Source: a virus
IMG/VR virus record: IMGVR_UViG_3300020202_000040
Location: 1-42,725 of that record
Length of the DNA: 42,725 nucleotides
Reading direction: 5' to 3' (one strand)
Positions 1-30,272 of this stretch are shown piece after piece; position 1 is the stretch's first letter, and each line of letters starts with the position of its first letter. Made by a program: the position numbers and the translations under genes. Under the pieces are notes generated by a model. It did no database searches, was not told the DNA's origin, and was given only the letters and a program-made list of their open reading frames with translations.

Positions 1-127
1 CGGATGTACATGGGCTGAGGAGTTCCGGCGGCTCAACGAGGTCCGCCTTGGGATACCGGCGGCGATGTTCGACGGAGGCACAGGCGTCACAGCGACCCTC
101 GCCGCATTGCTGACAGGACGGAGGCAC
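1..127. repeat. Terminal direct repeat, copy 1 (circular-assembly overlap or terminal redundancy)
   Basis: cggatgtacatgggctgagg...gacaggacggaggcac is identical base-for-base to 42599-42725. Confidence 0.95.
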
Positions 128-136
128 GCACGATGA
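2..136 (+). CDS. 3' part (duplicate copy) of the junction-spanning small basic CxxC protein that starts at 42456
   Basis: The reading frame from 42456 runs through the repeat and stops at TGA 134-136, overlapping ATG 133 (ATGA). Confidence 0.6.
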   Translation, partial: GCTWAEEFRRLNEVRLGIPAAMFDGGTGVTATLAALLTGRRHAR

Positions 137-651
137 ACACGAACGATTACCAACCCGCTCCGGACGCGGCGAAGGGGGAGGACGTTGTGGATCACCTGCG
201 GGTGATGGCGCGGCTGGCCCCCAAAGTGCGAGGGACGTACCTCGAAGCCGCTGACGAAATCCTCCGCCTCCGCACAGCGGTCAGGACGGCGGAGGGGGAG
301 CGGGACTTCTACAAGAAGCTGCACGAGGACGCCTGCGAGAACGAGACCCGCGCCGAGAAGGTTCTGGAGGAGTTCATCGGCGGTCCTGAGTACCAGCCGC
401 TGTACGAGTTGGCCGAGTTGGCGGTCAACGCCCTCCGCGCCTCCGAGCAGCGGCGGGGGGAGTTGGAGGCGGCTCTGCGGCACATTCGCGAGGAATCCGC
501 GAAGGACGGCTTCGGGTGCATGGTGCGCTACATCGACGCTGCACTGACCCCTCCCGTGTCTCAGGCGTCCACCCCCACCCCTGGCACAGACACCGCGACG
601 GGCGGGAACACCGCGTCTCAGGGGGCGGGGGAAGGGGGGAGCAATGGCTAA
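133..651 (+). CDS. Hypothetical protein (helical N-part, T/G-rich tail)
   Basis: 172-aa ORF; ATGA overlap with the upstream ORF; GC-rich third codon positions. Confidence 0.7.
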   Translation: MNTNDYQPAPDAAKGEDVVDHLRVMARLAPKVRGTYLEAADEILRLRTAVRTAEGERDFYKKLHEDACENETRAEKVLEEFIGGPEYQPLYELAELAVNALRASEQRRGELEAALRHIREESAKDGFGCMVRYIDAALTPPVSQASTPTPGTDTATGGNTASQGAGEGGSNG

Positions 652-838
652 GGCAAAGTGCAAGCACCCCAAGCGTGTGCGATTCAACGGCCCCCGCGTT
701 CCGGCCTACTACGGGTCCGCACCCACCGAGATATGTGCCAAGTGCGGGCGATGGCGGAGCACGCTGCACAACACAGGCCCGTGGCAGACAGCGGCGAGCT
801 TCACGAAGGCACTGACCCCGCAGGAGGACCCGGTATGA
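644..838 (+). CDS. Small Cys-containing hypothetical protein
   Basis: 64-aa ORF; ATG 644 overlaps the upstream stop (649-651); contains CKHP...CAKCGRW. Confidence 0.5.
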   Translation: MAKAKCKHPKRVRFNGPRVPAYYGSAPTEICAKCGRWRSTLHNTGPWQTAASFTKALTPQEDPV

Positions 839-1737
839 CCCCCGCGAGCGACCCGTCGAAGATGAGCGAGGCCCTTGTGTTCGCCCGGCAAGTTGTCGGC
901 TCTACGTGGAACGCCTTGTCCCTTGACCATGTGTGCAGCCGGAACCTGGAGGAGTGCTTGAAGGTCATTGACGCAGCCCTCCTCCCCCCGGCCAAGTCGC
1001 CGGGAACGCAGGAGGGGGCGGGCGAGAGCGAGAGGGCCCTTCGCAGTGCCCGCCAGAAGTGCTACGAGATCTGGCAGGGAGCGACGGCCTTATCCCCAAA
1101 GTCCGCAGCGCACGACGCAATGCGGGAGATCGACACTGCTCTTGCCGCCCTCTCCGCCTCACTCTCGCAGCCCGAGCAGGCTCGGCTCTACTCCCTTCCC
1201 GAACTGCGGTCGCTGCTGGCGAGGCACGCCCAGTCTCTGCCCGAGTCGCAGGGGTTCCACCCCACCGTGACGGCGTGGGACCTCCTCGACACACTTGGGA
1301 ATCAAGCCCCCGAAACTCCACAGTGCTCGGCCAGTGTGGAATCGGCTCCACAGCCCGCACCCTCGCAGCCCGAGCAGGCGAAGGCGTGCCCACTGTGCAG
1401 CGGCAGCGGTAAGGCCGCGGTTTACCTCAACACCGAGCACTTGTACGACGCCCCCTCCCCCACCAGCCCGGAGGCGGGGAAGTCTCAGCCGCACCCGCTG
1501 TCTATGCCGGGTGCCAGAACCGGCGCGATGGGCATGCAGTCTGGCGACCGCATCGTTGGCCCCGGTGGCAAGACGGGCCGGGCCGACGAGTTCCTTCCCG
1601 ACGGCGAAGTGTTCGTGAGTTGGGACGACGGCACGTATGCGACTTTGAAATGGGGACAGATCACACCAAGCCCGGACGCGGGGGAGGGGCGGCAACCCGC
1701 CGCGGCCCGCAAGGGGGGAGAGGCTGACCATGGATGA
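835..1737 (+). CDS. Hypothetical protein (300 aa)
   Basis: Internal ATG 835 of track ORF 658-1737; ATGA overlap with upstream stop; AGGAGGA at 822-828. Confidence 0.65.
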   Translation: MTPASDPSKMSEALVFARQVVGSTWNALSLDHVCSRNLEECLKVIDAALLPPAKSPGTQEGAGESERALRSARQKCYEIWQGATALSPKSAAHDAMREIDTALAALSASLSQPEQARLYSLPELRSLLARHAQSLPESQGFHPTVTAWDLLDTLGNQAPETPQCSASVESAPQPAPSQPEQAKACPLCSGSGKAAVYLNTEHLYDAPSPTSPEAGKSQPHPLSMPGARTGAMGMQSGDRIVGPGGKTGRADEFLPDGEVFVSWDDGTYATLKWGQITPSPDAGEGRQPAAARKGGEADHG

Positions 1738-1957
1738 ACTGTTGCCGTGTCCGTTCTGCGGGTACACCGACATCGAGGTGCACATCGAGCGGGGGCCGTT
1801 CGGCCACCATGCCGAGTGCGCGTGCCAGATATGTGGAGCAACCGTCGCAGGTATCGGCGTGCTGGTGCCCGAGGACGGCGGGCCAGCGGACGAACTCACC
1901 GCGTCGGCAATCGCCGCGTGGAACACCCGAAGCGAACCGAAGGAGCCGCACCAATGA
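1730..1957 (+). CDS. lar: Lar-family restriction alleviation protein
   Basis: N-terminal LLPCPFCG zinc-ribbon motif, second C..C pair, and C-terminal AIAAWNTR, the pattern typical of the Lar family. Confidence 0.7.
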   Translation: MDELLPCPFCGYTDIEVHIERGPFGHHAECACQICGATVAGIGVLVPEDGGPADELTASAIAAWNTRSEPKEPHQ

Positions 1958-2253
1958 CAACCCCCACACCGGGAGGGAAGGAGAGAGGCGTGGAAGTGAA
2001 GGCGATGACGAGAACAGAAATCGCGGCGATCCGCGACGCTCTTGACGGTCGGAATGATGAGTGGCGGGACGGGACTGTTCTGCGTCTCATCGCCGCGTAC
2101 GACCTGCTGGCGGGGGAATGCAGGGCGTGGAGGGCCACGGGAATCAGGCGAACAGAACAGGGCTATTGGATTCCGGCGTTGCCGCTCGACACGCTCGGCA
2201 CGATTGACGCCGCTCGCGCCCGCACCGACGCCGCTGGGGGGGTGGGAGCATGA
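1954..2253 (+). CDS. Hypothetical protein (99 aa)
   Basis: ATG 1954 inside track ORF 1747-2253; ATGA overlap; AAGGAG at 1940-1945. Confidence 0.6.
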   Translation: MTTPTPGGKERGVEVKAMTRTEIAAIRDALDGRNDEWRDGTVLRLIAAYDLLAGECRAWRATGIRRTEQGYWIPALPLDTLGTIDAARARTDAAGGVGA

Positions 2254-2642
2254 ACGAGAGAGAGATGGACCTACAGGTGGCACTGCGCGTCATGGGCCAC
2301 TGCCGCAGGCGGGCCAACACGCTGGTGAAGCACTCCGACCATGAGGCCGAGCAGATCTCGCACGCCGAGTACTGCTGGGACTACTTCGACCAGCACGGGA
2401 ACGTCGTACGGCTGCTGCGATACACCAAGGACGTTGCCGCCGACTACGAGGTGCTGGAGCGGGTGCGGGAATGGACCGCCCCTCAACGGTTCAGTTTTGG
2501 GTGCGAACTTGACGCAGTGTGGTCTGTGCGAGAGCACGGAGAGAACGGCGACAGGTACGTGCCTGAGAATGCGGTGCAGTACCGCCCCGGCGACTACAGC
2601 CGAGCAGCCCTCGCCGTGCTCGGAAACGGAGGTGCGAAGTGA
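2250..2642 (+). CDS. Hypothetical protein, phage ABA-sandwich-like (paralog 1 of 3)
   Basis: ATGA overlap; N-terminal LQVALRVMGH and YTKDVAADYEVLERV resemble the xALVAEKVMGW / YSTDxAAAWEV pattern of that family (from memory). Confidence 0.55.
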   Translation: MNEREMDLQVALRVMGHCRRRANTLVKHSDHEAEQISHAEYCWDYFDQHGNVVRLLRYTKDVAADYEVLERVREWTAPQRFSFGCELDAVWSVREHGENGDRYVPENAVQYRPGDYSRAALAVLGNGGAK

Positions 2643-2971
2643 GCAGAGAGACTGACGCGATCATCGCGGAGAGGGCGTGCGGGTGGACCGACCTGCGCGC
2701 GGTGCCTGTAAGCGGTATGGGCGATGTGCTGTATGGAACGCGGGGCGGGAAGCGAGACTCCGTTCCCAACTACTCCACCGACCTCAACGCCATGGCGGAG
2801 GCGGAAAAGCTCCTCACGCCGGAGCAGTTGGAGCAATACGGCGTCGCACTCGCCGAAGAGGTCGGCTTAGGGGTGCGACTCGTCTATCTCGCAAGCGCGT
2901 GGAAGCTCGCCACCGCCACCGCCCAGCAGAGGGCCAAGGCTTTGCTCGCCGTATTGGAGGGACAGCGATGA
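2639..2971 (+). CDS. Hypothetical protein, phage ABA-sandwich-like (paralog 2)
   Basis: GTGA overlap; DAIIAERACGW and NYSTDLNAMAEAEKLL motifs. Confidence 0.6.
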   Translation: MSRETDAIIAERACGWTDLRAVPVSGMGDVLYGTRGGKRDSVPNYSTDLNAMAEAEKLLTPEQLEQYGVALAEEVGLGVRLVYLASAWKLATATAQQRAKALLAVLEGQR

Positions 2972-3300
2972 ACGTTGAACAGATGAGGGACGAGGTGGCG
3001 AGGAGGCTGGGGTGGACCAAGAGCCCCATATGGACGCCCGTATACAACTACTGGGTTGAGCCCGGCAAAGACTTCGCAAACCACTACGGCCACCCCATCC
3101 CCGACGGCGACCTGACCACGCTCGCCGCGCTGTGGCCGGAGGGGTGGGACTGGGAAGTGGCGTTCGACGGCGACGGCTACACGGGCTGGATCAACCGCCA
3201 CGGCGACGACACCGACCACGAGATGTTCACCGGGCCGAGCGAGTACGAGTGCAGGTTGAAGATGCTGCTCGCCGTGCTCGGGAAGGGGCGTGGGGGGTGA
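2968..3300 (+). CDS. Hypothetical protein, ABA-sandwich-like (paralog 3, weaker)
   Basis: ATG 2968 inside track ORF 2677-3300; ATGA overlap; N-terminal MRDEVARRLGW. Confidence 0.55.
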   Translation: MNVEQMRDEVARRLGWTKSPIWTPVYNYWVEPGKDFANHYGHPIPDGDLTTLAALWPEGWDWEVAFDGDGYTGWINRHGDDTDHEMFTGPSEYECRLKMLLAVLGKGRGG

Positions 3301-3695
3301 AATACAACACCAACTGCTACATCATCCCCCGACAGTGGATCACCGACCGCGCGGCCCTCGTCTGCCAACATCGCGAAATCGCTTGGCAGGACTTCGCTGG
3401 CGGGGGCCGTCACCCTGCCGTCGTCGCCTGCCGGGAAGTCGCGTACATCCTCTGCTACGAGTTCACCGACGCCACCCACCGCGTTTGCAGCGGGCCGGAG
3501 CTGGCCCTGAGCGTCGGGCGGGCCAACCACAGCAGCATCTTCACGGCCATCCGCCGGGCCAACCAGGACCCCGAGCGCGTGGCGGAAGCGGAACGGCTGG
3601 CGGTGGTGATGGGGCTCAGGCGGCGGAAGGATCCGGCCAGGCATGACGCGCCAGCGAGGGAGCCGGGCAAGCAGGGGAGGGCGGGGGCGGCGTAG
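3297..3695 (+). CDS. DnaA domain-IV-like helix-turn-helix protein (no AAA+ module)
   Basis: GTG 3297 (GTGA overlap); AVVACREVAYILCYEFTD...ELALSVGRANHSSIFTAIRRAN parallels DnaA C-terminal RxxVxARQxAMyLxxELT...GgRDHTTVLHA. Confidence 0.55.
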   Translation: MKYNTNCYIIPRQWITDRAALVCQHREIAWQDFAGGGRHPAVVACREVAYILCYEFTDATHRVCSGPELALSVGRANHSSIFTAIRRANQDPERVAEAERLAVVMGLRRRKDPARHDAPAREPGKQGRAGAA

Positions 3696-3712
3696 GCCCC
3701 AGCGAAACCATG

Positions 3713-3741
3713 TTGCGTTCCCGACTCAGACCCCCTATTCT
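3713..3741 (+). promoter_or_regulatory. Candidate sigma70-type promoter (TTGCGT-17-TATTCT)
   Basis: Lies in the first sizeable intergenic gap (3696-3779), ahead of the membrane-protein/terminase/structural gene string. Confidence 0.3.
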
Positions 3742-3779
3742 CTCCGTAAGGGACTCGCGCAGGTGCATGGAAAGCACCA

Positions 3780-4340
3780 GTGCCGGACACCCCACCCGCA
3801 CAACACATCGCACATAACTCGCATCTGCGAGGGTCCCCCCGTCGCGCGCGCCTCCCCCGGTGCGTTGCGGCTTTTGCCCGTGTCTGTCGCTGGCCCTTTC
3901 CCTGCGGGTTCATCGCGGGGGCGTGGGCAGCGGCAATCATGTACGCCCTAGCCGTTGGGGGGTGTGCCACAGGCACGACCAAAAGCGGCGAAACCAACTT
4001 CGGTGTCGTGCTCCCCGGTGAGCCGATCAGCCCCGGCGCCCTCGGTGAAGGTGCCGAGCAAGTCATGTCGTGGCTCGGAATCCCCGGCGGCAAACTCATC
4101 GGCGGGCTCGTCGGTGTCGGTGCCGCCGCATGGCTCAGAAACCGCAGCACCCGCAAAGACGCCGACCGGGCCTACGACGCCGAGCGTGAAGCCGCCATCG
4201 AGCGTGCCCGCCTGCAAGGCCGTGACGAGGGCTGGGACGAATACCACCGAGCCTCCACAACCCAACTACCAACCGTGGGCGGCGTGCCTGCTGGTGCTGG
4301 CGGCAATCCTCGCCCTGTCACCACGGAGCCGCTGACATGA
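3780..4340 (+). CDS. Membrane lipoprotein-like protein (lipobox LAVGGC plus a second TM segment); start uncertain (GTG 3780 or ATG 3940)
   Basis: FIAGAWAAAIMYALAVGGC hydrophobic stretch ending in Cys; later GGKLIGGLVGVGAAAWL TM followed by a charged helix. Confidence 0.55.
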   Translation: MPDTPPAQHIAHNSHLRGSPRRARLPRCVAAFARVCRWPFPCGFIAGAWAAAIMYALAVGGCATGTTKSGETNFGVVLPGEPISPGALGEGAEQVMSWLGIPGGKLIGGLVGVGAAAWLRNRSTRKDADRAYDAEREAAIERARLQGRDEGWDEYHRASTTQLPTVGGVPAGAGGNPRPVTTEPLT

Positions 4341-4582
4341 ACCTCAACGGCGACACCAAGATCACCCTTGCAGTCGCGGTCTTGTGCCTGTCAACCGCTG
4401 TTGGCGGGACGTGGAAGGTGTCAACCGCCGTCAACCAGCTTCAGCGGGACGTCGCGGGCTCCTACACGCTCGCAGCGGCGAGTGAACAGGCCCTCCGCAT
4501 GGCGATTGAGAACCCCGGCCTGCGTGTCCCCGACCCGCGCGATCCATCCAAGATCATCACCACGCCGAGCAAAGGAAACTGA
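4337..4582 (+). CDS. Small membrane-anchored protein (N-terminal TM)
   Basis: ATGA overlap; ITLAVAVLCLSTAVGG hydrophobic N-terminus. Confidence 0.6.
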   Translation: MNLNGDTKITLAVAVLCLSTAVGGTWKVSTAVNQLQRDVAGSYTLAAASEQALRMAIENPGLRVPDPRDPSKIITTPSKGN

Positions 4583-4972
4583 ATGAACCCCATCGCAAGC
4601 ATCGTCACTTGCGTCCTGTCATTCCTCATCGCTACCACCAACACCACCCCGACTGCTGTCATCAAGCACGCGAACGTCATTGAGGCCACGAGCAACAGCC
4701 CAGGCGAACTCACCGTTTACACGAGCATGTCCGCCACTTACGTTGACCTGGACTTCGACGGCGAGTCCTCTATCGGCACGGAAGGGGCCGACCTCATCAT
4801 GTGTTGCTGGTTTGTGGACGGCGAGCTGGCAGACGCCGAGGACTTCAGCCCCACACTGCGGCTTGAAATCGGCGAGGACCCTATCGAGGTTGAGTTCACC
4901 GTGTACGCGAACGACGCGGACATCACCCCGAGCGAGCCTGCAATCCTCACCATCACCGTCGTACGGCAGTAA
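4583..4972 (+). CDS. Secreted or membrane-anchored Ig/PKD-like protein
   Basis: ATG directly follows the upstream stop; hydrophobic N-terminus IASIVTCVLSFLIA; beta-rich acidic domain. Confidence 0.6.
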   Translation: MNPIASIVTCVLSFLIATTNTTPTAVIKHANVIEATSNSPGELTVYTSMSATYVDLDFDGESSIGTEGADLIMCCWFVDGELADAEDFSPTLRLEIGEDPIEVEFTVYANDADITPSEPAILTITVVRQ

Positions 4973-4987
4973 CCGGCAAAGGTAATC

Positions 4988-5320
4988 ATGGCTGCTACAG
5001 CCGTCATTCAAGTCAACGGGCAAACAGTCGCAACCAGTGCCGCGGCGGGCCGCATCGCGCGCCCAAAGGGCGACACGACGTTCTCTGGAGAGGCTTCGAC
5101 GCCCGACGCGGGTGCGAACGAGATTACCACGTACAACTGGAGCTTCGACGGCGCGTCGAGTTCCAACGCGACTCCGACTTTCACGCTGGTTGAGGGGCGA
5201 GTCCACACTATCACCCTTCAGGTCGCCGACGATCTTGCGAACGAGGCAACGGCGACGCTGACGGTGGTTGTGCCCGGCGGGTTCCGCAGCCGTGACTACA
5301 GGGGGAGAGGCGGGAGGTAG
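4988..5320 (+). CDS. PKD-domain-like protein
   Basis: YNWSFDGASSSNATPTFTLVEGRVHTITLQVADDLANEATATLTVVV matches the PKD pattern (Y.WdFGDG...H.Y...G.Y.V.L.V.D). Confidence 0.6.
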   Translation: MAATAVIQVNGQTVATSAAAGRIARPKGDTTFSGEASTPDAGANEITTYNWSFDGASSSNATPTFTLVEGRVHTITLQVADDLANEATATLTVVVPGGFRSRDYRGRGGR

Positions 5321-5395
5321 CACGCAGCACCTCACCGCACAAACGGATTGATCCTACCGGCCAGATTCCGACTTTCAAGAGGGCGCGCGACACGC

Positions 5396-5791
5396 ATGAG
5401 CGACGAGGGGAACAATCAGGGGCACGACGACGGCCTGCCTTCCCCTCCAGACCGAGGGGGTAGGGGGCAATGCAGCCTTGCCGACCTGATGGACCCGCAC
5501 CGGGCGCGGGGTGCTGCTGGGCTACTCGCCCGCGCAATCTCCGCCGGGTACATCGACGCCTTCTGCATCGACTACCAGGAAGCGAAGAAGCTCGCCCGGG
5601 AACTGGCACAGCTCAAAGACAACCCAAGGGCGAAGGCTGCTGGCGTCAAGCTGTTGGCGGCGATGGCTATCCACGACCTCAAGCTCATGGAGATTGCCGA
5701 CAAGTCCAAGCGGCTGGATGACGGCTTGCCCACTGAGAACATCGGGGGCAGCATCAAGTTCATCAAGGGCGTGGACGAGGAGGCGATCTAG
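5396..5791 (+). CDS. Putative terminase small subunit (call by position)
   Basis: 131-aa helical protein immediately upstream of terL, sharing one base with it; ATG 5396 preferred over TTG 5348. Confidence 0.45.
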   Translation: MSDEGNNQGHDDGLPSPPDRGGRGQCSLADLMDPHRARGAAGLLARAISAGYIDAFCIDYQEAKKLARELAQLKDNPRAKAAGVKLLAAMAIHDLKLMEIADKSKRLDDGLPTENIGGSIKFIKGVDEEAI

Positions 5792-7143
5792 TGGTGTCCG
5801 TGGCCGACATCCCCGCTGACGCCAACGTGTACGAGCCGCGGGGCGGGGCACGCCAGTTGTTCCATTGCCGGGACCTGGAAGTGGACCTAGAAGGGCCAGC
5901 GGGCACGGGTAAGAGCCGCGCGGCACTGGAGAAGGCCAACGCCGTGGCTGAGAAGTACCCCGGCGCCCGCATCCTGCTGATCCGCAAGACGCGCGTCAGC
6001 ATGACCGAATCGGTGCTGGTGACGTGGGAAGAGAAGGTGCTCGGCCCAGAGCACTACCTCTGCCGGAACGGGGCTACGCGGGCGCACCGAACGGAGTACC
6101 GCTACAAGAACGGGTCGGTTGTAGTGCCAGGGGGGATGGACAACCCTGACCGGATCATGTCAACCGAGTGGGACCTCATCATCGAGTTTGAGGCCACCGA
6201 GCTGAGCGAGCACGAGCACGAGATGCTGTCCACCCGCTTGCGCAACGGGCGGATCGGCTACCACCAGCAGATCAGCGACTGCAACCCGAGCGGGCCGGGG
6301 CACTGGATCAACCGGCGGGCGTTGGACGGGAAGATGACCCGCATCCTGTCCCGGCACAAGGACAACCCGTTTCTATGGGACGGGAAGGACTGGACCGACG
6401 TAGGCCGGGCGTACATGGCGACCCTGGAGCGGCTGACCGGCCACCGCAAGAACCGGCTGCTGCTGGGCAAGTGGACGGCGGCGGAGGGGTTGGTGTACCC
6501 CGAGTTCGAGGCTGCGGCGGGTGGGCACGTCATCGACGCAATGCCCGATGGCTGGCAGGGCTGGCCCAAGCGCCGCTCCATCGACCTTGGCTTCAACGAC
6601 CCCTTTGTGTGCCAGTGGTGGGCCGAGTCCGACGACGCCCTGTACCTGTACCGCGAGGTGTACATGAGCGGGCGGATCATCGAGGACCACGCCCGGCAGA
6701 TTCTCCGGCTGTCGGCCGGCGAGGACTACGAGGCCACGGTGAGCGACCATGACCGAGAGGATCGTGAGACGCTGCACCGCCACGGGGTACAGACCACGCC
6801 AGCGACCAAGGACATCGACGCAGGTATAGCGGAGGTCAAGGCGAGGCTGACCAAGGGCGGCAACGGAAAGCCCCGCCTGTTCTTCCTGCGGTCGGCGCTG
6901 GTGGAGCGGGACGAGGCTTTGGCCGACGCCAAGCGGCCTACGTCCACGCTGGAGGAGTTCGACGCCTACCTGTGGAAGCAGCACCGCGACGGGGTGGCGA
7001 AGGACGAGCCGGTGGACCGCGACAACCACGGTATGGATGCGATGCGGTATTGCGTGATGAGTATGCAGTCCGGCCAGTACTACGCCTTCGGCACGGGCAC
7101 CGGCGAGCAGCCCAAGCGCGGCGGGTGGAGGGAGGCGGTATGA
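5791..7143 (+). CDS. terL: Terminase large subunit
   Basis: Walker A GPAGTGKS, LIIEFEATE Walker-B-like segment, C-terminal nuclease segment DRDNHGMDAMRY; 450 aa. Confidence 0.93.
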   Translation: MVSVADIPADANVYEPRGGARQLFHCRDLEVDLEGPAGTGKSRAALEKANAVAEKYPGARILLIRKTRVSMTESVLVTWEEKVLGPEHYLCRNGATRAHRTEYRYKNGSVVVPGGMDNPDRIMSTEWDLIIEFEATELSEHEHEMLSTRLRNGRIGYHQQISDCNPSGPGHWINRRALDGKMTRILSRHKDNPFLWDGKDWTDVGRAYMATLERLTGHRKNRLLLGKWTAAEGLVYPEFEAAAGGHVIDAMPDGWQGWPKRRSIDLGFNDPFVCQWWAESDDALYLYREVYMSGRIIEDHARQILRLSAGEDYEATVSDHDREDRETLHRHGVQTTPATKDIDAGIAEVKARLTKGGNGKPRLFFLRSALVERDEALADAKRPTSTLEEFDAYLWKQHRDGVAKDEPVDRDNHGMDAMRYCVMSMQSGQYYAFGTGTGEQPKRGGWREAV

Positions 7144-7418
7144 GCGTCGTTCTGGACATCCATGAGAACGAAGAACTGCGGCACGCCAAGGCGTTCCTTG
7201 ACGGCGTGGAACTCTCGCACTGCTTCCGCCTGTGCCCAGCCGAGGGGTGGGCTGATGTGTACGAGACAGAGAACGGCGGGCGGCGCATCGCACTTACCCC
7301 CGACGGGTTGGCCCCTGCTACCAAGCGGGTGCATGGGCGGGTGTACGCAATCGACACCCGCACGGGCGAGCCGTGGGACACCGACAAAGCCATGTACTCC
7401 GAAGGGGGCTGTGACTGA
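7140..7418 (+). CDS. Hypothetical protein (92 aa)
   Basis: ATG 7140 inside track ORF 6972-7418; ATGA overlap with the terL stop. Confidence 0.55.
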   Translation: MSVVLDIHENEELRHAKAFLDGVELSHCFRLCPAEGWADVYETENGGRRIALTPDGLAPATKRVHGRVYAIDTRTGEPWDTDKAMYSEGGCD

Positions 7419-9970
7419 TGCCGAAGGCCACCACCAAACGCCCCACCCGCGCCCCCAAGTCCCCCACCCCCGGCCGCGAGGTCTACGAGCCCTACGCGAT
7501 GGGCACGGTCATGGTGGGGGAGGGCATGTCCCGCCAGTTCTCGTTCAACCCCACCGACAACGCCCTGGTGCGGCGGTGCGTGCAGCAGACGATGGCCTGG
7601 GCCGTGGCGTTCAACGCGATGGCGTGCGCCCAACAGAAGCTCCGCCTGTTCCGCACCACCAAGGCCAAGGGCAAGGCCCTGTGGGCGGGCAAGCGGGTGA
7701 CTAACCGCAAGATGCTCCGCCACCTGCGCGGGGAGGGTCTGTACGACGCGGGCACCAAGGCTCTTGAGCTGAGCAATGAGGGGGACGTTGAGGAAGTGCT
7801 TGACCACCCAGCGCTAACCCTGTTCCGCCAGCCCGACCCCTTCCAAACCAGCATCGACTTCATGGAGACGCACTTCTGGGGCAAGGAAGCGGTGGGACGC
7901 TCGTACACCTGCAAGGCCGAGCGGGGCAGCGACGGGACGCCGGTGAGCCTGTACAACCTGCTGCCCGCCTACATGACCGTGCAGCCAGACGAGCGCACGT
8001 TCATCCGTGGGTACTGGTACGGGCGCAACACGGTGGCGCAGAGGATGTACACGCCCGCCGATGTGATCTACCACCGGCACATGACGAACAAGCTGAACCC
8101 CCTGGAAGCCTACTCGTGGCCGTCCACGCTCCAGATGGAGTCAGACTGCGAGATGGCGGCGGTGCAGAGCGAGGTGGCGAAGTGGAACAACGGCGGGCAG
8201 CCGGGCATGATCGTGAGCATTGACGGCACACCCCCGTCTCCCACGGCGCGGGCACAGATCGAGTCTGACTGGGCGCGGCAGGTCAAGGGGGTGCAGAAAC
8301 ATGGCGGCGCATTCTTCATATTCGGCAAGGCCAGCGTTACACAGGGCACCGACTCGAAAGAGATGCAGTACGTCGAGGGCCTGACCAAGATCGAGAAGCG
8401 CATCTACCGCGCGGCCGGCATCCCCGACTCCATCGTGGAGATGAGCAAGTCGAACCTGGCGAACGCTTGGCGGGCGGATCCGCAGTACTGCTCGCAGGTG
8501 ATCCTCCCCCGGATCAATAAGTCGGCGGAGGAGTTCAACCTGTGGCTCCTCTACAGCGACTTCGATCTGGACCCGGGCGAGTACTTCTTCGCGTTCGACA
8601 ACCCGGTGAAGGAGGACGAGGTAGCGGCGGTGGACCGGGCGGTGAAGCTGGTTACGGCGGGGATCATCCGCCGAGAGGTGATCGCGGCGGAGCTTGGGTA
8701 TTTGCCGGAGGATGTGGGGACGGACCCCAACGCCGTGCCGGAGCCTGTGGAGGTGGAGGATGGGGCCGAACAGACCGATCCCGAGGGCGGCGACACGACG
8801 GTGGATGGCACAGTCGCCGCGCCGACCGGGCGGGACGTACAGGCGGAGGCCCTCAATGGCGCACAGGTCACAGCACTGGCGGAGTTGGCTTCGCAGGTCG
8901 CGCTGGGTCAACTGCCCGAGCGTTCGGCCCGCGCGATTGCACGGGCGGCGTTCCCCCTCGTGTCCGACGAACTGCTCACCGAAATCTTCGGGGGGCTGGA
9001 AGCCTTCGAGCCAGAGCCCGATCCCACAGCCGCACCGCCCGATAACACTAAACCCCCGAACGGTAATGGACCTAGCAACGTGGCAGTGGGCGGCGACGGT
9101 GCGAAAGCCTTGGGAACTGAACTGACGCGCGGTAGCGTGAGCGCCCATGAGCGAGGCGGATCAACGGCGTCTGGTGCAGATCATGGCTCAACTAGAGCGC
9201 ATGACGAAGCCCGCTTCCCCTCCACCTCCCCCGCCCGCAAACGGCTTGCGCTTGAACCCCGGGAAGGGTGCGAGTGTGGACATCCCGCCGGACATATTCA
9301 CGGCAAAGCCACCGAGCCCGAAACGTCGCTTGGACAACTGAAGGCGAAGCTTGAGGCGTGGCTGAAGGCGACGTACCCGGAGGCGTTGCAGCCGGACGGG
9401 TCGGTGGTGCTGACGCCCGCGCAGGAGCAGGACCTACAGGCCATCCTCGGCCCTGTCATCCGTGAGTACATGGAGGAGGGCGCCAGCGCCACCGCGGGCA
9501 AGCTGGGCGGGGAGTGGGGCGGGATCGCCACCAACCCCCGGGCCTTGGAGTGGGCCGAGCAGCACGCGGCGGAGGCGGTCAGGGACATCGCGGACACGAC
9601 GCGGGCGGAGCTGAACGCGGCGGTCACTTCGGGCTTGCAGGAGTCGCGGACGCTGAACGAGATTCAGGCCGACATCCGCGAGCGGGTGCCGGAGATTGCG
9701 AGTGCGCGGGCGGAGGTCATCGCCCGCACCGAAACCGCCACGGCCTACAACCGGGGCGGGGTGATCGCGGCGAAAGAGAACGGGTACACGCACAAGCAGA
9801 TTGACCTCGCGGGGGGGTCGTGCCCCACCTGTGAGGCGGTGGTGGCGGCGCACCCCGAAGGCGTGCCGATTGACGGGAGTTTCATGGTGGAGGGGACGCC
9901 GATGTACAGCAGCCCGCTGCACCCGAACTGCCGGTGTGCCACAACGTTTGAGGACAGGAGCGAAGGATGA
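7418..9970 (+). CDS. Portal protein fused to a MuF/SPP1-gp7-type head morphogenesis domain
   Basis: 850-aa single ORF. The N-terminal ~530 aa is portal-like, including LNGAQVTALAELASQVALGQLPERSARAIARAAF. A Pro/Gly-rich linker follows. The C-terminus has ARTETATAYNRGG...CPTCEA...PLHPNCRC, typical of MuF-like minor head proteins. Confidence 0.8.
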   Translation: MPKATTKRPTRAPKSPTPGREVYEPYAMGTVMVGEGMSRQFSFNPTDNALVRRCVQQTMAWAVAFNAMACAQQKLRLFRTTKAKGKALWAGKRVTNRKMLRHLRGEGLYDAGTKALELSNEGDVEEVLDHPALTLFRQPDPFQTSIDFMETHFWGKEAVGRSYTCKAERGSDGTPVSLYNLLPAYMTVQPDERTFIRGYWYGRNTVAQRMYTPADVIYHRHMTNKLNPLEAYSWPSTLQMESDCEMAAVQSEVAKWNNGGQPGMIVSIDGTPPSPTARAQIESDWARQVKGVQKHGGAFFIFGKASVTQGTDSKEMQYVEGLTKIEKRIYRAAGIPDSIVEMSKSNLANAWRADPQYCSQVILPRINKSAEEFNLWLLYSDFDLDPGEYFFAFDNPVKEDEVAAVDRAVKLVTAGIIRREVIAAELGYLPEDVGTDPNAVPEPVEVEDGAEQTDPEGGDTTVDGTVAAPTGRDVQAEALNGAQVTALAELASQVALGQLPERSARAIARAAFPLVSDELLTEIFGGLEAFEPEPDPTAAPPDNTKPPNGNGPSNVAVGGDGAKALGTELTRGSVSAHERGGSTASGADHGSTRAHDEARFPSTSPARKRLALEPREGCECGHPAGHIHGKATEPETSLGQLKAKLEAWLKATYPEALQPDGSVVLTPAQEQDLQAILGPVIREYMEEGASATAGKLGGEWGGIATNPRALEWAEQHAAEAVRDIADTTRAELNAAVTSGLQESRTLNEIQADIRERVPEIASARAEVIARTETATAYNRGGVIAAKENGYTHKQIDLAGGSCPTCEAVVAAHPEGVPIDGSFMVEGTPMYSSPLHPNCRCATTFEDRSEG

Positions 9971-10505: not shown

Positions 10506-11210
10506 ATGGTCGCCACACTCAAAGGGCCGGACATCATCCGCAAGCTGCGCGAGGCGCACCCCGAACTGGACGCCGGGGCGCGGCTGGGCGTCGTGTCCTC
10601 GTTCTGCAAGGATTCCCGCGTCGAGGCCAACGCCGGGCGGAAGTCCGTCGAGATCGTCGGCACCCTCACAACCGACGACATCGACCTGGACGAAGAGCGC
10701 GTGCTGCCCGATGGCATCGACTTCAACGGGTACATGATGAAGAACCGTAACTGGTTCGTTGACCACGACTACAGCCTCCTCTCGTGCGTGGGCAAGGTGC
10801 GCAGTCTCACCCGCAAGGGCAACGGGTGGCAGTACCGGGTCCAGATGCTGTACAACCCAGAGAACCCGCTGATCCAGGCCGTCGTGTCTCTGGCGGAGGC
10901 GGGGTCCTGCCCCACCTCCATCGGCTTCTGTGAGAAGGACGGCGGGGCACCGACGAAGGATGAGGAGCGGCGTTACCCCGGCAAGGCGTTCATCGTCCGC
11001 AAGTGCGTGGCGGTCGAGGGGTCGTTTACGGCCATGCCCTGCAACGTCTCCTGCCAGTCTGGGCAGGTCGTGTTTACCGGGAGCGAGGAGAAGGCGGAGA
11101 CGGCGCGGGGAATCCTCGTCAAGTCCCGCATCCCGGAGGCGTACTGGGCACGGCTGGGGCTGGCACCCGTCAAGGCGAAGCGGCGGATACTGGTGTGGGA
11201 TGGGCGGTAG
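10506..11210 (+). CDS. HK97-family prohead protease (S78/U35-like)
   Basis: Lies between portal and capsid; NWFVDHDYSLLSCVGKV (His region) and CPTSIGF (Ser region) resemble the family pattern. Confidence 0.55.
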   Translation: MVATLKGPDIIRKLREAHPELDAGARLGVVSSFCKDSRVEANAGRKSVEIVGTLTTDDIDLDEERVLPDGIDFNGYMMKNRNWFVDHDYSLLSCVGKVRSLTRKGNGWQYRVQMLYNPENPLIQAVVSLAEAGSCPTSIGFCEKDGGAPTKDEERRYPGKAFIVRKCVAVEGSFTAMPCNVSCQSGQVVFTGSEEKAETARGILVKSRIPEAYWARLGLAPVKAKRRILVWDGR

Positions 11211-11222
11211 GGAGAACCGAGC

Positions 11223-26740: not shown

Positions 26741-27039
26741 CGGGGGCTCCGGGTGGTGGGGGTGAGTGGCTCAACTTCAATCGCGGCCTGTGCGTCGTAG
26801 GCCAATGACAGCACGCGGTCTACCCACGGTGAAACGTGGCTGAGGCCATGGCCCATCGGGCCACGATCTATCTTCGCCAGAGAACGACACACTCCCGTCA
26901 TCGCGTCGGCCTGACGCGCCCGCATCAGCAGGTGGGCCACTGTGTCTGACTCGGTGGGCATAGTAGAGGCCAACCACCGGAGGTAGGTGCCCAGTGTCAT
27001 GTCTTCTAGGCGCTTGGCTGTTCGCTTCGCCATCCTCAC
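26737..27039 (-). CDS. Hypothetical protein (100 aa)
   Basis: GTG 27039 overlaps the HTH gene stop (GTGA); an ATG 6 nt downstream is an alternative start. Confidence 0.6.
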   Translation of the reverse strand: MRMAKRTAKRLEDMTLGTYLRWLASTMPTESDTVAHLLMRARQADAMTGVCRSLAKIDRGPMGHGLSHVSPWVDRVLSLAYDAQAAIEVEPLTPTTRSPR

Positions 27040-27263
27040 TCCTTCCGCTGGGGGCGGGTTAGTCGGGCTTTCTTTGTGGGCCTACCCACCAACGTCGCCG
27101 CCATCGCCCAGTATTGATTCCGCTTGGGCTCGCCCTTGCCCTCGCGCCAGCGATACACCGTCGAGCGGTTGACGCCTGCCGCCCTTGCCAGTTCGGGCGT
27201 ACTCACGCCCGCGTTTGATGCGGCGGCAAACAGTTCGCGTATTTCCTTGGACGCTGGCGGCAT
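27036..27263 (-). CDS. Small HTH DNA-binding protein (repressor/Cro/excisionase-class)
   Basis: VSTPELARAAGVNRSTVYRWREGK helix-turn-helix; first gene of the leftward operon, next to the int region. Confidence 0.7.
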   Translation of the reverse strand: MPPASKEIRELFAAASNAGVSTPELARAAGVNRSTVYRWREGKGEPKRNQYWAMAATLVGRPTKKARLTRPQRKE

Positions 27264-27281
27264 TGTCGCAGTTTAGCGACA
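27264..27281. promoter_or_regulatory. Perfect palindrome TGTCGC-AGTTTA-GCGACA (operator candidate)
   Basis: Abuts the HTH start codon and covers the predicted -10. Confidence 0.5.
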
Positions 27282-27298
27282 CTGGCACCCGCTGTCAA
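27270..27298 (-). promoter_or_regulatory. Candidate leftward promoter TTGACA-17-TAAACT, giving a leaderless HTH mRNA
   Basis: The minus strand reads TTGACAgcgggtgccagtgtcgcTAAACTgcgacaATG; no Shine-Dalgarno before the ATG. Confidence 0.45.
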
Positions 27299-27381: not shown

Positions 27382-27494
27382 TGGTGAGTAGTTCAGCTTG
27401 GTCGAACACCGACCGGCTCTGGCTACGTGCGGGCAACCGCAAACGAACCAGAGAAGCGGACGGAGGCACGCGGGTTCAAATCCCGCCTCACCAT
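27382..27494 (+). ncRNA. tRNA-shaped RNA with a 60-nt rod in place of the anticodon arm (atypical tRNA / tRNA mimic)
   Basis: Acceptor TGGTGAG/CTCACCA, D arm GTTC-AGCTTGGTC-GAAC, T arm GCGGG-TTCAAAT-CCCGC. The central part is CCGACCG/CGGACGG + CTCTGG/CCAGAG + CTACG[TGCGG-GCAA-CCGCA]AACGAA. Confidence 0.6.
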
Positions 27495-28158: not shown

Positions 28159-28276
28159 CGCCTACCGATTCCCAGCCATTCTGTGAAGAAATGCTCACGC
28201 TCTATCAACCTAGAGCGCCCAGTCTCCCTAGACAACCGCCCGGTGTGTGCGCCCGGTGCCTTGGGGGAGGTTCTGG

Positions 28277-29869
28277 ATGAGCACGACAGACGGGTGGAAG
28301 CTGTGGGACGCCGAGGGTGTGGAGCGCGGGATCGGCGTGATGCCGAAGGCGGTGCCGAAGAACGTGGACGGGGCGGAGCCGATGCCCTATCACGCCACGC
28401 GGCACGCCGACCGTCCCATAAGCGAGCAACTCGCCCTCGCGTGCATCGAAACGGTGCAGAAAGCGTTGCACCTTTTGGAGGGGCAAGTAGGTTTGGCCCG
28501 CATGACAGCGGCACAGGCGAGCCCGGCACCACAGCCCGGCCCGCTCAGAATCTCTACCGACAGCCCGACCGTCAGCGTGCTGCTGGTTGCGTGGACCGGC
28601 GCGTTGAAGCTCAAGGGCGTCACTGACGGCCACGTTAAAGACTCCATCGACTGTGTGACCGACGCCGCCGCGTCTCAGTGCTGGACCTTCCCCAGCCAGA
28701 TGACGCCCGCCACGATCCGCACTTACTTGGAGGCCCGCAAGCTCAAGGGCAACGGCCCGCGGTATCTGAACCACCAACGCGCGTACATCGGCACGTTCTG
28801 GGACTTCTGCAAGGGCGAAGGCGCCGTGTCCGGGGACAACCCCATTGACGCCGTGCCCCGCGCCCGCGTGAAGCGGCGGCAGGCGTTCCACGTCCCTACC
28901 GAGGATGAGGTGGTGCGTCTCATCGTCGGCGCGACACAGGACTGGCGGAAGAAAGACCGCTGGCTTGTGCGGCTGGTGCAGGCGTGCAGCCATTACCGAA
29001 TCGGCACGCTCCGCGGCATGAAGCCCGAGCACGCGCACGAGGCGGAGTTCCCACCGTACTTCGAAGTTCCTCCGGAGCTGGTCAAGAACGGCGAGCCGAC
29101 GCGCGTGTGGATGACGGCGGAAGTGGCTCGCTGGATCACCGAGCACAAGCGGATCAATGCGGCCAAGATCAAAGCGAGGGGGCTGCTGTTTCTATCGGTG
29201 GGCAAGGGCAAAGAGTTCGACCGGGATCTGGAAGCCGCGAATCTCCCGAAGAAAGCGCACCCAGGAGCACCCGCGTTTGTCCCGCACAGCCTGCGGCACT
29301 TCGCCAGCAACCGGCTCAAGTGGGCCGAGGTGTTCACGGACGAGGAGCGGCAGGCGCAGAACGGGCACAAGACGTTGGAGATGACCACGAGGGTCTACAC
29401 CGATCCCTCTCACATTCAGTTAGGCCAGAAAATCTACCGGCTGAAAGACCTTTTACCGGACGGGTTTAGGCCAAGATGGGGGCAGCGAACAGAAAAAACG
29501 GGGCAAAGTGTGCTTGCACCCCCGGGGGAAACCGATAAACTGGACGACGCCAAGCCGAACAAGGGATTGAATCGTGTTCACCCCCCAGACTCACTACAAG
29601 AACCCGCCTGTGACCCGAGTGGTCCGGCTTGGCGGCATGACGGCAATCCCGTGCGGGCGGGTTCTTGCCGTGAGTCGAGCGAAGGGCGGCAGTTAGACGA
29701 GCCTGATACTGACCGGGGCAAGCGGTTCGAATCCGCCTACCCCGACTTAGATCAAAATGACCCCGATATAAACGGGGTCTACCTCGAGCTGATCGAGGTC
29801 CAGGCCCGCCTGATTGCCGCCCTTCTCCGGAAGGGACGCGGCAATGGACCGTCAAAGGCAAGCGGCTAG
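28277..29869 (+). CDS. int: Tyrosine integrase with ~155-aa post-catalytic extension
   Basis: GGGGAGG at 28264-28270; RIGTLRG (Arg), HSLRHF (H-x-x-R), GHKTLEMTTRVY (His...Tyr; Tyr codon at 29396-29398). Confidence 0.88.
   Translation: MSTTDGWKLWDAEGVERGIGVMPKAVPKNVDGAEPMPYHATRHADRPISEQLALACIETVQKALHLLEGQVGLARMTAAQASPAPQPGPLRISTDSPTVSVLLVAWTGALKLKGVTDGHVKDSIDCVTDAAASQCWTFPSQMTPATIRTYLEARKLKGNGPRYLNHQRAYIGTFWDFCKGEGAVSGDNPIDAVPRARVKRRQAFHVPTEDEVVRLIVGATQDWRKKDRWLVRLVQACSHYRIGTLRGMKPEHAHEAEFPPYFEVPPELVKNGEPTRVWMTAEVARWITEHKRINAAKIKARGLLFLSVGKGKEFDRDLEAANLPKKAHPGAPAFVPHSLRHFASNRLKWAEVFTDEERQAQNGHKTLEMTTRVYTDPSHIQLGQKIYRLKDLLPDGFRPRWGQRTEKTGQSVLAPPGETDKLDDAKPNKGLNRVHPPDSLQEPACDPSGPAWRHDGNPVRAGSCRESSEGRQLDEPDTDRGKRFESAYPDLDQNDPDINGVYLELIEVQARLIAALLRKGRGNGPSKASG
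29714..29745 (+). other. tRNA 3'-end / minihelix mimic: candidate attP core
   Basis: CGGGGCA-AGCGG-TTCGAAT-CCGCC-TACCCCG-A; a T-loop plus 3' acceptor strand of C1-G72/A73 (Pro-like) type, inside the int 3' extension. Confidence 0.4.
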
Positions 29870-30272
29870 CACCGGCTCAGAATCCCCCACAACCAAGCAC
29901 ACGCCGGGGCCGTGGACGGCGACTCTAGCTCGCACCCTGATCCACGTTCACAACGCCGAACTTGGCGAGCCGGTTGTCGCCATATCTGTTTCGCCCCCTC
30001 GCATTCACGAAAGGGACTTGCGGGACAAGGCGGTTGCGACGGCGCACGCCAACGCCCGCCTGATCTCTGCCGCGCCGGACCTGTTCGCGTACGCACGCTG
30101 CCAGGAGGCGTGGTCCTCTCGCACCGATGGTGGTGACTACCCGCACGGTGCCGTTCTCTCGCTCTTCCGTGAGTACGGATACGACGAACCCGTCGAGGGA
30201 TCGGTGTTCCTCGAAGACCTCCGCCGCGCCGCCATCGCCAAAGCCACCAAGGCGACAGGCGGTGCCGAGTGA
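29844..30272 (+). CDS. Ead/Ea22-like protein (paralog A)
   Basis: HTPGPW ... ANARLISAAPDLFAYA motifs. Confidence 0.55.
   Translation: MDRQRQAASTGSESPTTKHTPGPWTATLARTLIHVHNAELGEPVVAISVSPPRIHERDLRDKAVATAHANARLISAAPDLFAYARCQEAWSSRTDGGDYPHGAVLSLFREYGYDEPVEGSVFLEDLRRAAIAKATKATGGAE

Follow-up and report, generated by a model that had tools for sequence, protein, structure and literature searches.

The window analysed here is IMG/VR record IMGVR_UViG_3300020202_000040, 42,725 bp long with terminal repeats and a GC content of 65.7%, a complete phage genome. Its tyrosine integrase gene (int) continues far past the catalytic tyrosine, and our data make it very likely that this tail is a phage attachment site (attP) translated inside the int reading frame. 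The open reading frame (ORF) crosses the attP core, which forms codons ~490-499 of 540. Three Phycisphaerales genomes have a tRNA-Pro(GGG) gene whose 3′ part is identical to the core over 24-27 nt, and in two relatives of the integrase, integration replaces the C-terminus of the protein, a step that we infer for the window phage itself. An earlier note on this DNA had proposed an attP core copied from a host tRNA 3′ end within int; the host match and the prophage junctions described below bear this out.

The gene and the parts of its product are as follows.

28247-29869, plus strand: tyrosine integrase ORF of 540 aa (from the ORF list), with the catalytic domain up to Tyr384 and then a 156-codon tail.
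29396-29398, plus strand: codon of the catalytic Tyr384, an invariant column among 18 homologues (alignment A1).
29399-29503, plus strand: post-Tyr segment kept as protein (a helix and an LLP motif), conserved in the same alignment, with a predicted local distance difference test (pLDDT) score of ~89 at residues 390-410.
29746-29866, plus strand: the 41 C-terminal codons that integration would replace, from a comparison of free and integrated tails.

The protein has the catalytic residues of a tyrosine recombinase (R251, K280, H347, R350, H374 and Y384, all invariant or nearly so in the alignment) and a confidently modelled core. It matches PHROG 1 (integrase) at E 6e-20, and Pfam Phage_integrase (PF00589) covers residues 233-387 at 26.3 bits, slightly below the 27.1 cut-off. 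The AlphaFold2 (AF2) model is confident for residues ~105-412, predicts disorder for residues 416-509 (pLDDT ~30) and places a C-terminal helix at residues 506-531 (pLDDT ~67). Homologues share 33-42% identity with the window Int over their best local match and are 401-565 aa long, nearly all with long tails. The family is rare, with 36 clusters at E 1e-30 among 1.84 billion representatives. Scans of viral and metagenome sequences returned few family loci (1 and 8), and a tblastn search of 50,697 phage records with the window Int gave no match.

Within the tail, the string AGCGG-TTCGAAT-CCGCC-TACCCCG-A lies at 29721-29745, and CGGGGCA at 29714-20 pairs with TACCCCG in 6/7 positions. A second copy of CGGGGCAA is found at 29499-506, and the 11-mer GGTTCGAATCC has a single exact occurrence in the genome. 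These elements are where the earlier note had placed them, and its statement that no complete cloverleaf can be drawn also holds: just positions 50-73 of a tRNA are present. At this site and at a second tRNA-like site upstream of int, ARAGORN called no tRNA (0 genes) and Rfam called none either, at the gathering threshold or at E 10; the sole Rfam matches were chance matches of microRNA models to hairpins.

29722-29745, plus strand: identity block with positions 50-73 of the host tRNA-Pro(GGG), found without mismatch in the complete tRNA-Pro genes of L026, L027 and L028.

Against one of the three host genomes the identity block runs on to 29748 (27 nt). A phylum-level sample was insufficient to find this match, which required an order-level sample of 251 Phycisphaerales genomes. 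Furthermore, the identical 24 nt are present within the int tail at a prophage junction in an NCBI metagenome-assembled genome (MAG), L005, followed by a terminator-like hairpin and host genes. Two of the integrase relatives are themselves contained in Phycisphaerales MAGs. The window is thus likely to be a temperate phage of Phycisphaerales (Planctomycetota), which gives this uncultured phage a likely host and a target, tRNA-Pro(GGG).

The tRNA piece is a constant feature of the family. Every relative with DNA sequence has, at the same place in the int tail, a T-loop followed by an acceptor strand of the tRNA-Pro type ending in A73, with T-stem sequences that vary among lineages. In the homologue alignment, the peptides RFES/RFKS and GSNP or GFEP fall at one position and are the T-arm translated in two frames or from the opposite strand. 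As the tRNA piece is read in two frames and on either strand, the peptide is a by-product.

Prophage junctions in relatives coincide with this piece. MAG G001 contains two copies of the core on the same strand, separated by 42,106 bp and sharing a 31-nt direct repeat; one copy is in a complete tRNA-Pro(GGG) gene and the other in the int tail, without a tRNA. Metagenome contig L013 is the joined, circularly permuted form and is colinear with both G001 prophage ends, its bases 1-5203 matching the int end up to the core and its bases 5173-9128 matching the far end from the core on. The two G001 ends and the joined form in L013 therefore give attL, attR and the attP form for one relative. The second pair consists of L023 (free) and L004 (integrated), which are 79% identical over 1065 nt up to a point 3 nt past A73. 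Beyond the core, L023 has phage early genes and L004 has a host-type terminator hairpin and a DinB gene, with the L004 Int ending one codon past the core. In free-form relatives the genes after int encode an exonuclease, RecT, SSB and DnaB, and the overlap between int and the next gene measures 29-44 nt, whereas in integrated forms host terminators and host genes come after int. In both pairs the C-terminus of Int differs between the free and the integrated form.

These comparisons suggest how the window phage would integrate. Int would recombine the core with the tRNA-Pro(GGG) gene of the host, with strand exchange most likely in the 7-nt T-loop. With integration in the G001 orientation, the tRNA would be rebuilt at the far prophage end from bases supplied by the phage, and int would stay at the near end, fused to the displaced 3′ fragment of the host tRNA and whatever follows it. 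Int would lose its last 41 residues, including the predicted helix, and gain a short unrelated end. When the window int was joined in silico to three host loci, the products were proteins of 500 or 532 aa with ends unrelated to the native last 41 residues. The exchange of C-termini expected by the earlier note is seen in relatives and probable here, and its extent is reduced from all ~155 residues to the last 41 codons, which alone are located past the tRNA end.

The remainder of the tail, a stretch of ~90 codons from the post-Tyr segment to the core, would be a disordered read-through of the P arm of attP. Region-wise comparison of the one close pair of relatives, L014 and L021, gave the following proportions of synonymous (pS) and nonsynonymous (pN) differences and ratios of nonsynonymous to synonymous rates (dN/dS).

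Enzyme body: pS 0.55, pN 0.08, dN/dS 0.09.
35 codons after Tyr: pS 0.59, pN 0.11, dN/dS 0.10.
86-codon linker to the core: pS 0.18, pN 0.25, dN/dS 1.54.
Post-core part: pS 0.16, pN 0.08, dN/dS 0.44.

In the linker, pS is one third of that in the enzyme body, and constraint is equal and moderate at all codon positions. From these values the linker appears to evolve as DNA and not as protein in this pair, and a distant pair points the same way. Codon usage changes over the same region, as the earlier note had observed. The GC content of third codon positions (GC3) in int is 0.85 up to the Tyr codon and drops to 0.57 in the 105 codons that follow, with 0.62 for the tail. No lower value occurs among 523 windows of 138 codons from likely genes, which have a median of 0.88. 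The note had read this shift as foreign DNA. Import is not supported; the shift fits a DNA-level constraint on the attP region, since linker sequence that is set by nucleic-acid constraints (nested inverted repeats) and not by protein function would show such a drop.

The same data bear on whether the tail is an ordinary C-terminal domain, with a tRNA likeness that arose by chance or is a captured fragment without a role in recombination. The frame is open for ~156 codons in every free-form relative, which by a rough base-composition estimate has a chance of ~0.4%, and the helix past the core is moderately conserved in the dN/dS comparison and modelled at intermediate pLDDT. However, the linker lacks protein-level selection and is predicted to be disordered, translation of the tRNA piece occurs in either of two frames and, in some relatives, from the other strand, and prophage junctions coincide with this piece. 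The ordinary-domain explanation is largely refuted, and we regard it as exceedingly improbable. Conservation of the tail as protein, which according to the earlier note would refute its proposal, was not seen in the linker.

Several points weigh against the translated attP. Strand exchange is located only to within the 24 nt. The dN/dS comparison comprises two pairs of relatives only. Few genomes carry the target: a 22-mer from the window was found in 3/251 sampled Phycisphaerales genomes (each time as the 3′ end of a complete tRNA-Pro(GGG) gene) and the 24-mer in 0/401 genomes sampled across the Planctomycetota phylum. The base preceding the identity block creates an unexplained A·C mismatch in the T-stem, which recurs in L014 and L021. 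When the G001 prophage was compared with the window ORFs, int alone matched. Finally, no lysogen of the window phage itself was found, and the exchange of its C-terminus is deduced from relatives at 32-41% protein identity.

The second tRNA-like site offers another candidate for the attachment site.

27383-27489, plus strand: tRNA-shaped unit in which a 6-bp acceptor stem is combined with a D arm (GG loop, as is usual) and a perfect T arm.

In place of the anticodon arm this unit has a ~65-nt hairpin capped by a GCAA tetraloop, and a similar unit is present in relative L022 at about 11108-11212. The earlier note had left the choice between this signal, placed at 27382, and the int tail undecided. 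Were the unit the real attP, the segment in the int tail would be a relic. Its acceptor, D and T arms, its perfect 5-bp T-stem and its location in a non-coding gap upstream of int suit such a role. On the other hand, all mapped junctions of related integrases are at the int-tail core, and the 3′ end of the unit has no match with <=2 mismatches in five candidate Phycisphaerales host genomes. The unit is also a whole tRNA shape and not a 3′ fragment, and relatives have similar units or ordinary tRNA genes distant from int. The question is thereby largely settled for the int tail. The unit at 27383-27489 is probably a separate feature and is highly unlikely to be attP.

The translated attP contains an unusual amount of structure. 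The segment 29540-29835 folds far better than shuffled sequences (z -8.0), and within the gene this excess is confined to ~29590-29830. The elements of the site are listed here in order.

29588-608 and 29656-676, plus strand: hairpin A in the P arm, a 21-nt inverted repeat (I2) with arms 47 nt apart and 90% complementary.
29681-29705, plus strand: 5′ arm of the closing inverted repeat (I1), 25 nt, 84% complementary, with 95 nt between arms; it forms the closing stem in minimum free energy (MFE) folds.
29714-29744, plus strand: core palindrome, the 'minihelix' of the earlier note, with a 12-nt arm, the 7-nt T-loop as spacer (29726-32) and a 12-nt arm, from sequence and fold.
29759-29779, plus strand: hairpin 2, a 7-bp stem with a 7-nt loop just past the tRNA end, with a conserved A-run in front of the stem; the 'DPD.NGV' motif is its translation.
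29781-29799, plus strand: hairpin 3, a 7-bp stem with a 5-nt loop, from MFE folds.
29801-29825, plus strand: 3′ arm of I1, past the core, which encodes part of the C-terminal helix.

The left outer arm of the core palindrome is specific to the phage and does not derive from the tRNA. The same layout of arm, spacer and arm, with other T-stem sequences, is found in L022, L023, L024 and phage Mx8. The two arms of the palindrome would be core-type Int sites that flank a 7-nt overlap.

A different use of the palindrome can be envisaged, in which the acceptor/T minihelix acts in int mRNA as a tRNA mimic and RNase P or Z or the CCA-adding enzyme cuts or tags the message. The minihelix is stable (z -5.7 for 29705-29785) and is kept in four lineages with different T-stems. 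However, the core site of a tyrosine recombinase needs the same inverted repeat, and Mx8 has one. Furthermore, L005 and L013 lack an acceptor-like left arm beyond the tRNA's own, and the A·C mismatch interrupts the T-stem in the window. We therefore consider a tRNA mimic very unlikely.

The outer elements are conserved to different degrees. RNAalifold recovered the pairing of hairpin A in 7 lineages, with 12 pairs, 7 of which have changes on both sides. Hairpin 2 occurs in every free-form relative, and in L013 it shows one compensatory change. On the minus strand its stem has a T-rich run behind it and is scored as an intrinsic terminator; hairpin 2 might stop antisense transcription entering the tRNA or int. 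The 25-nt closing repeat encloses the core together with hairpins 2 and 3. Closing stems of 17-25 bp occur at the same place in L013, L022, L023 and L024 with unrelated sequences, and stems of ~9 bp occur in L014 and L021. MAFFT and RNAalifold recovered the core, hairpin 2 and hairpin A and not the closing stems, the arms of which do not align. A duplex-energy test of the closing stems was too noisy (z from +1.2 to -3.4), and these stems rest instead on per-sequence folds and repeat lists.

The motif CGGGG/CCCCG occurs 7 times in 301 nt of this region compared to 1.7 expected from the genome rate, a 4-fold local excess. This excess includes the CGGGGCAA copy at 29499-506 and, in the P arm, a palindrome (29520-29529) made up of five C followed by five G; both may be extra Int sites. 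We also considered the arm repeats as copies of each phage's own core half-site. The fit was loose and limited to the window and L024, and this idea was dropped.

The outer stems raise a possible extension of the translated attP, in which they act in RNA. The closing stem would form only on int transcripts of the free phage and lead to cleavage (of the RNase III type) or to uncoupling of int from the early genes. Integration would split the stem by carrying its 3′ arm to the far prophage end, and the prophage int mRNA would escape. In free-form relatives with unrelated arms, the closing stem encloses a multi-branch fold with z -5 to -10. The 95-nt spacer argues against extrusion of a cruciform in duplex DNA, and complementarity over 17-25 nt appears to exceed the needs of a protein site. 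A comparison of L013 with G001 shows how integration would shift the 3′ arm to the far prophage end. However, sense and antisense strands fold about equally (5/9 favour sense), so that no strand is singled out, and the closing stem is only ~9 bp in L014 and L021. In hairpin A the arms keep both their sequence and their pairing, which fits protein-binding sites too. Action of the outer stems in RNA is possible, if on the improbable side.

Such an arrangement would amount to retroregulation of the sib type inside the int ORF. In phage lambda, sib is a structured element past the crossover that is linked to int in the free phage only and is removed by integration. The geometry in the window is of this kind, with the 3′ arm of the closing stem (29801-825) beyond the core and its G001 equivalent at the far prophage end. 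The lambda element lies outside int, beyond attP, whereas in the window both arms are in the int ORF and flank the core. Judged from this geometry, control of the window int in the manner of lambda sib is possible. That the nested stems form an RNA switch within the int coding sequence, with a 17-25-bp helix found only on free-phage transcripts that controls int or the early genes and is cut by integration, we hold to be unlikely.

Nearly all window genes are on the plus strand, and the structural genes occupy the first 25.7 kb. These are followed by a small leftward operon with a helix-turn-helix (HTH) regulator, the tRNA-shaped element, an ORF of unknown function, int and the early genes.

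29844-30272, plus strand: first early gene, which overlaps the end of int and has a PHROG 1273 match (from the ORF list).

Downstream of this gene are a PD-(D/E)XK exonuclease gene and a RecT-like gene. A near-consensus sigma-70-like promoter (27270-27298, minus strand) is directly upstream of a 75-aa HTH regulator gene (27036-27263, minus strand), which is transcribed away from int. Relatives L021, L022, L024 and L006 have a large, divergently oriented N6/N4 DNA methyltransferase gene adjoining int upstream, and in L006 the N-terminus of its product looks ParB-like by eye. At this position the window instead carries the HTH operon and the tRNA-like unit. The early regions of three free-form relatives contain tRNA genes (L021, 7099-7174; L023, 5140-5212; L024, 8648-8723), comprising tRNA-Met, tRNA-Gln and one with an undetermined anticodon.

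Two further observations concern tRNA-Pro(GGG) loci. In L007 (2114-3515, from Phycisphaerales MAG G002) an integrase of the family reads antiparallel into a complete tRNA-Pro(GGG) gene, and a displaced partial copy is on another contig, L011. The antiparallel layout implies that the family places the core in either orientation relative to int. On contig 1 of G513 (L027/L029; 1340276-1342865), a complete tRNA-Pro(GGG) gene and a partial, degenerate copy are 2.5 kb apart on the same strand. The interval holds a 445-aa ORF and a GIY-YIG-like ORF, and no relative of the window integrase was found in these 2.5 kb. The interval may be an island, small or decayed, at the same site.

An integrase gene that spans its own attachment site has been described for Myxococcus phage Mx8, where the attP site lies in int and int acquires a new 3′ end upon integration, the prophage form being IntX; the Islander method allows for Mx8 and SSV integrases that extend across attP (PMC6070905; PMC4383910). 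Like the window Int, Mx8 IntP is a tyrosine integrase of ~535 aa with a long post-Tyr tail and the attP core in its ORF, and both have a tRNA gene, in its 3′ part, as target. The Mx8 sequence also has a palindrome on the tRNA T-arm and a hairpin adjoining the tRNA end, in Mx8 a true terminator hairpin. There are also differences. The Mx8 core, which we take to derive from tRNA-Asp, is antisense to int, whereas the tRNA-Pro piece in the window is in sense; about 110 residues lie beyond the core in Mx8 compared to 41 in the window; the Mx8 MFE fold, unlike that of the window, has no long closing stem around the core; and the hosts belong to different phyla. Mx8 IntP has no detectable similarity to the window Int (BLASTP E 3.1, with no tblastn match in the phage records searched) and homology is not supported, which implies that the design has arisen, or been kept, independently.

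The window also resembles the T-loop class of tRNA-gene integration sites, reportedly set out by Williams in 2002. Its identity block covers the tRNA from the T-stem to the 3′ end, and its symmetric T-arm would provide an inverted repeat around the overlap. SSV-type integration splits int into two separated parts, whereas in the window only the C-terminal 41 codons would be exchanged and the catalytic part stays intact. The SSV1 type (fusellovirus, archaea) shares with the window an attP within the int ORF and a tRNA-gene target (PMC4383910). The arrangement of Mx8 IntP and attP is thus a known design, of which the window is a further example and not a new principle.

With the window, the design of an int gene laid out across its attachment site is extended to phages of Planctomycetota. 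The int tail is a clean example of 'coding' sequence that, over a long stretch, evolves as nucleic acid (DNA or RNA) and not as protein. It also calls for caution in annotation, as the conserved peptides RFES, GSNP and DPD.NG are a translated tRNA arm and hairpin. The nested stems split by integration are a candidate for integration-dependent control. If this were true, a single recombination event would change the end of Int, the fate of int mRNA and the link between int and the early operon.

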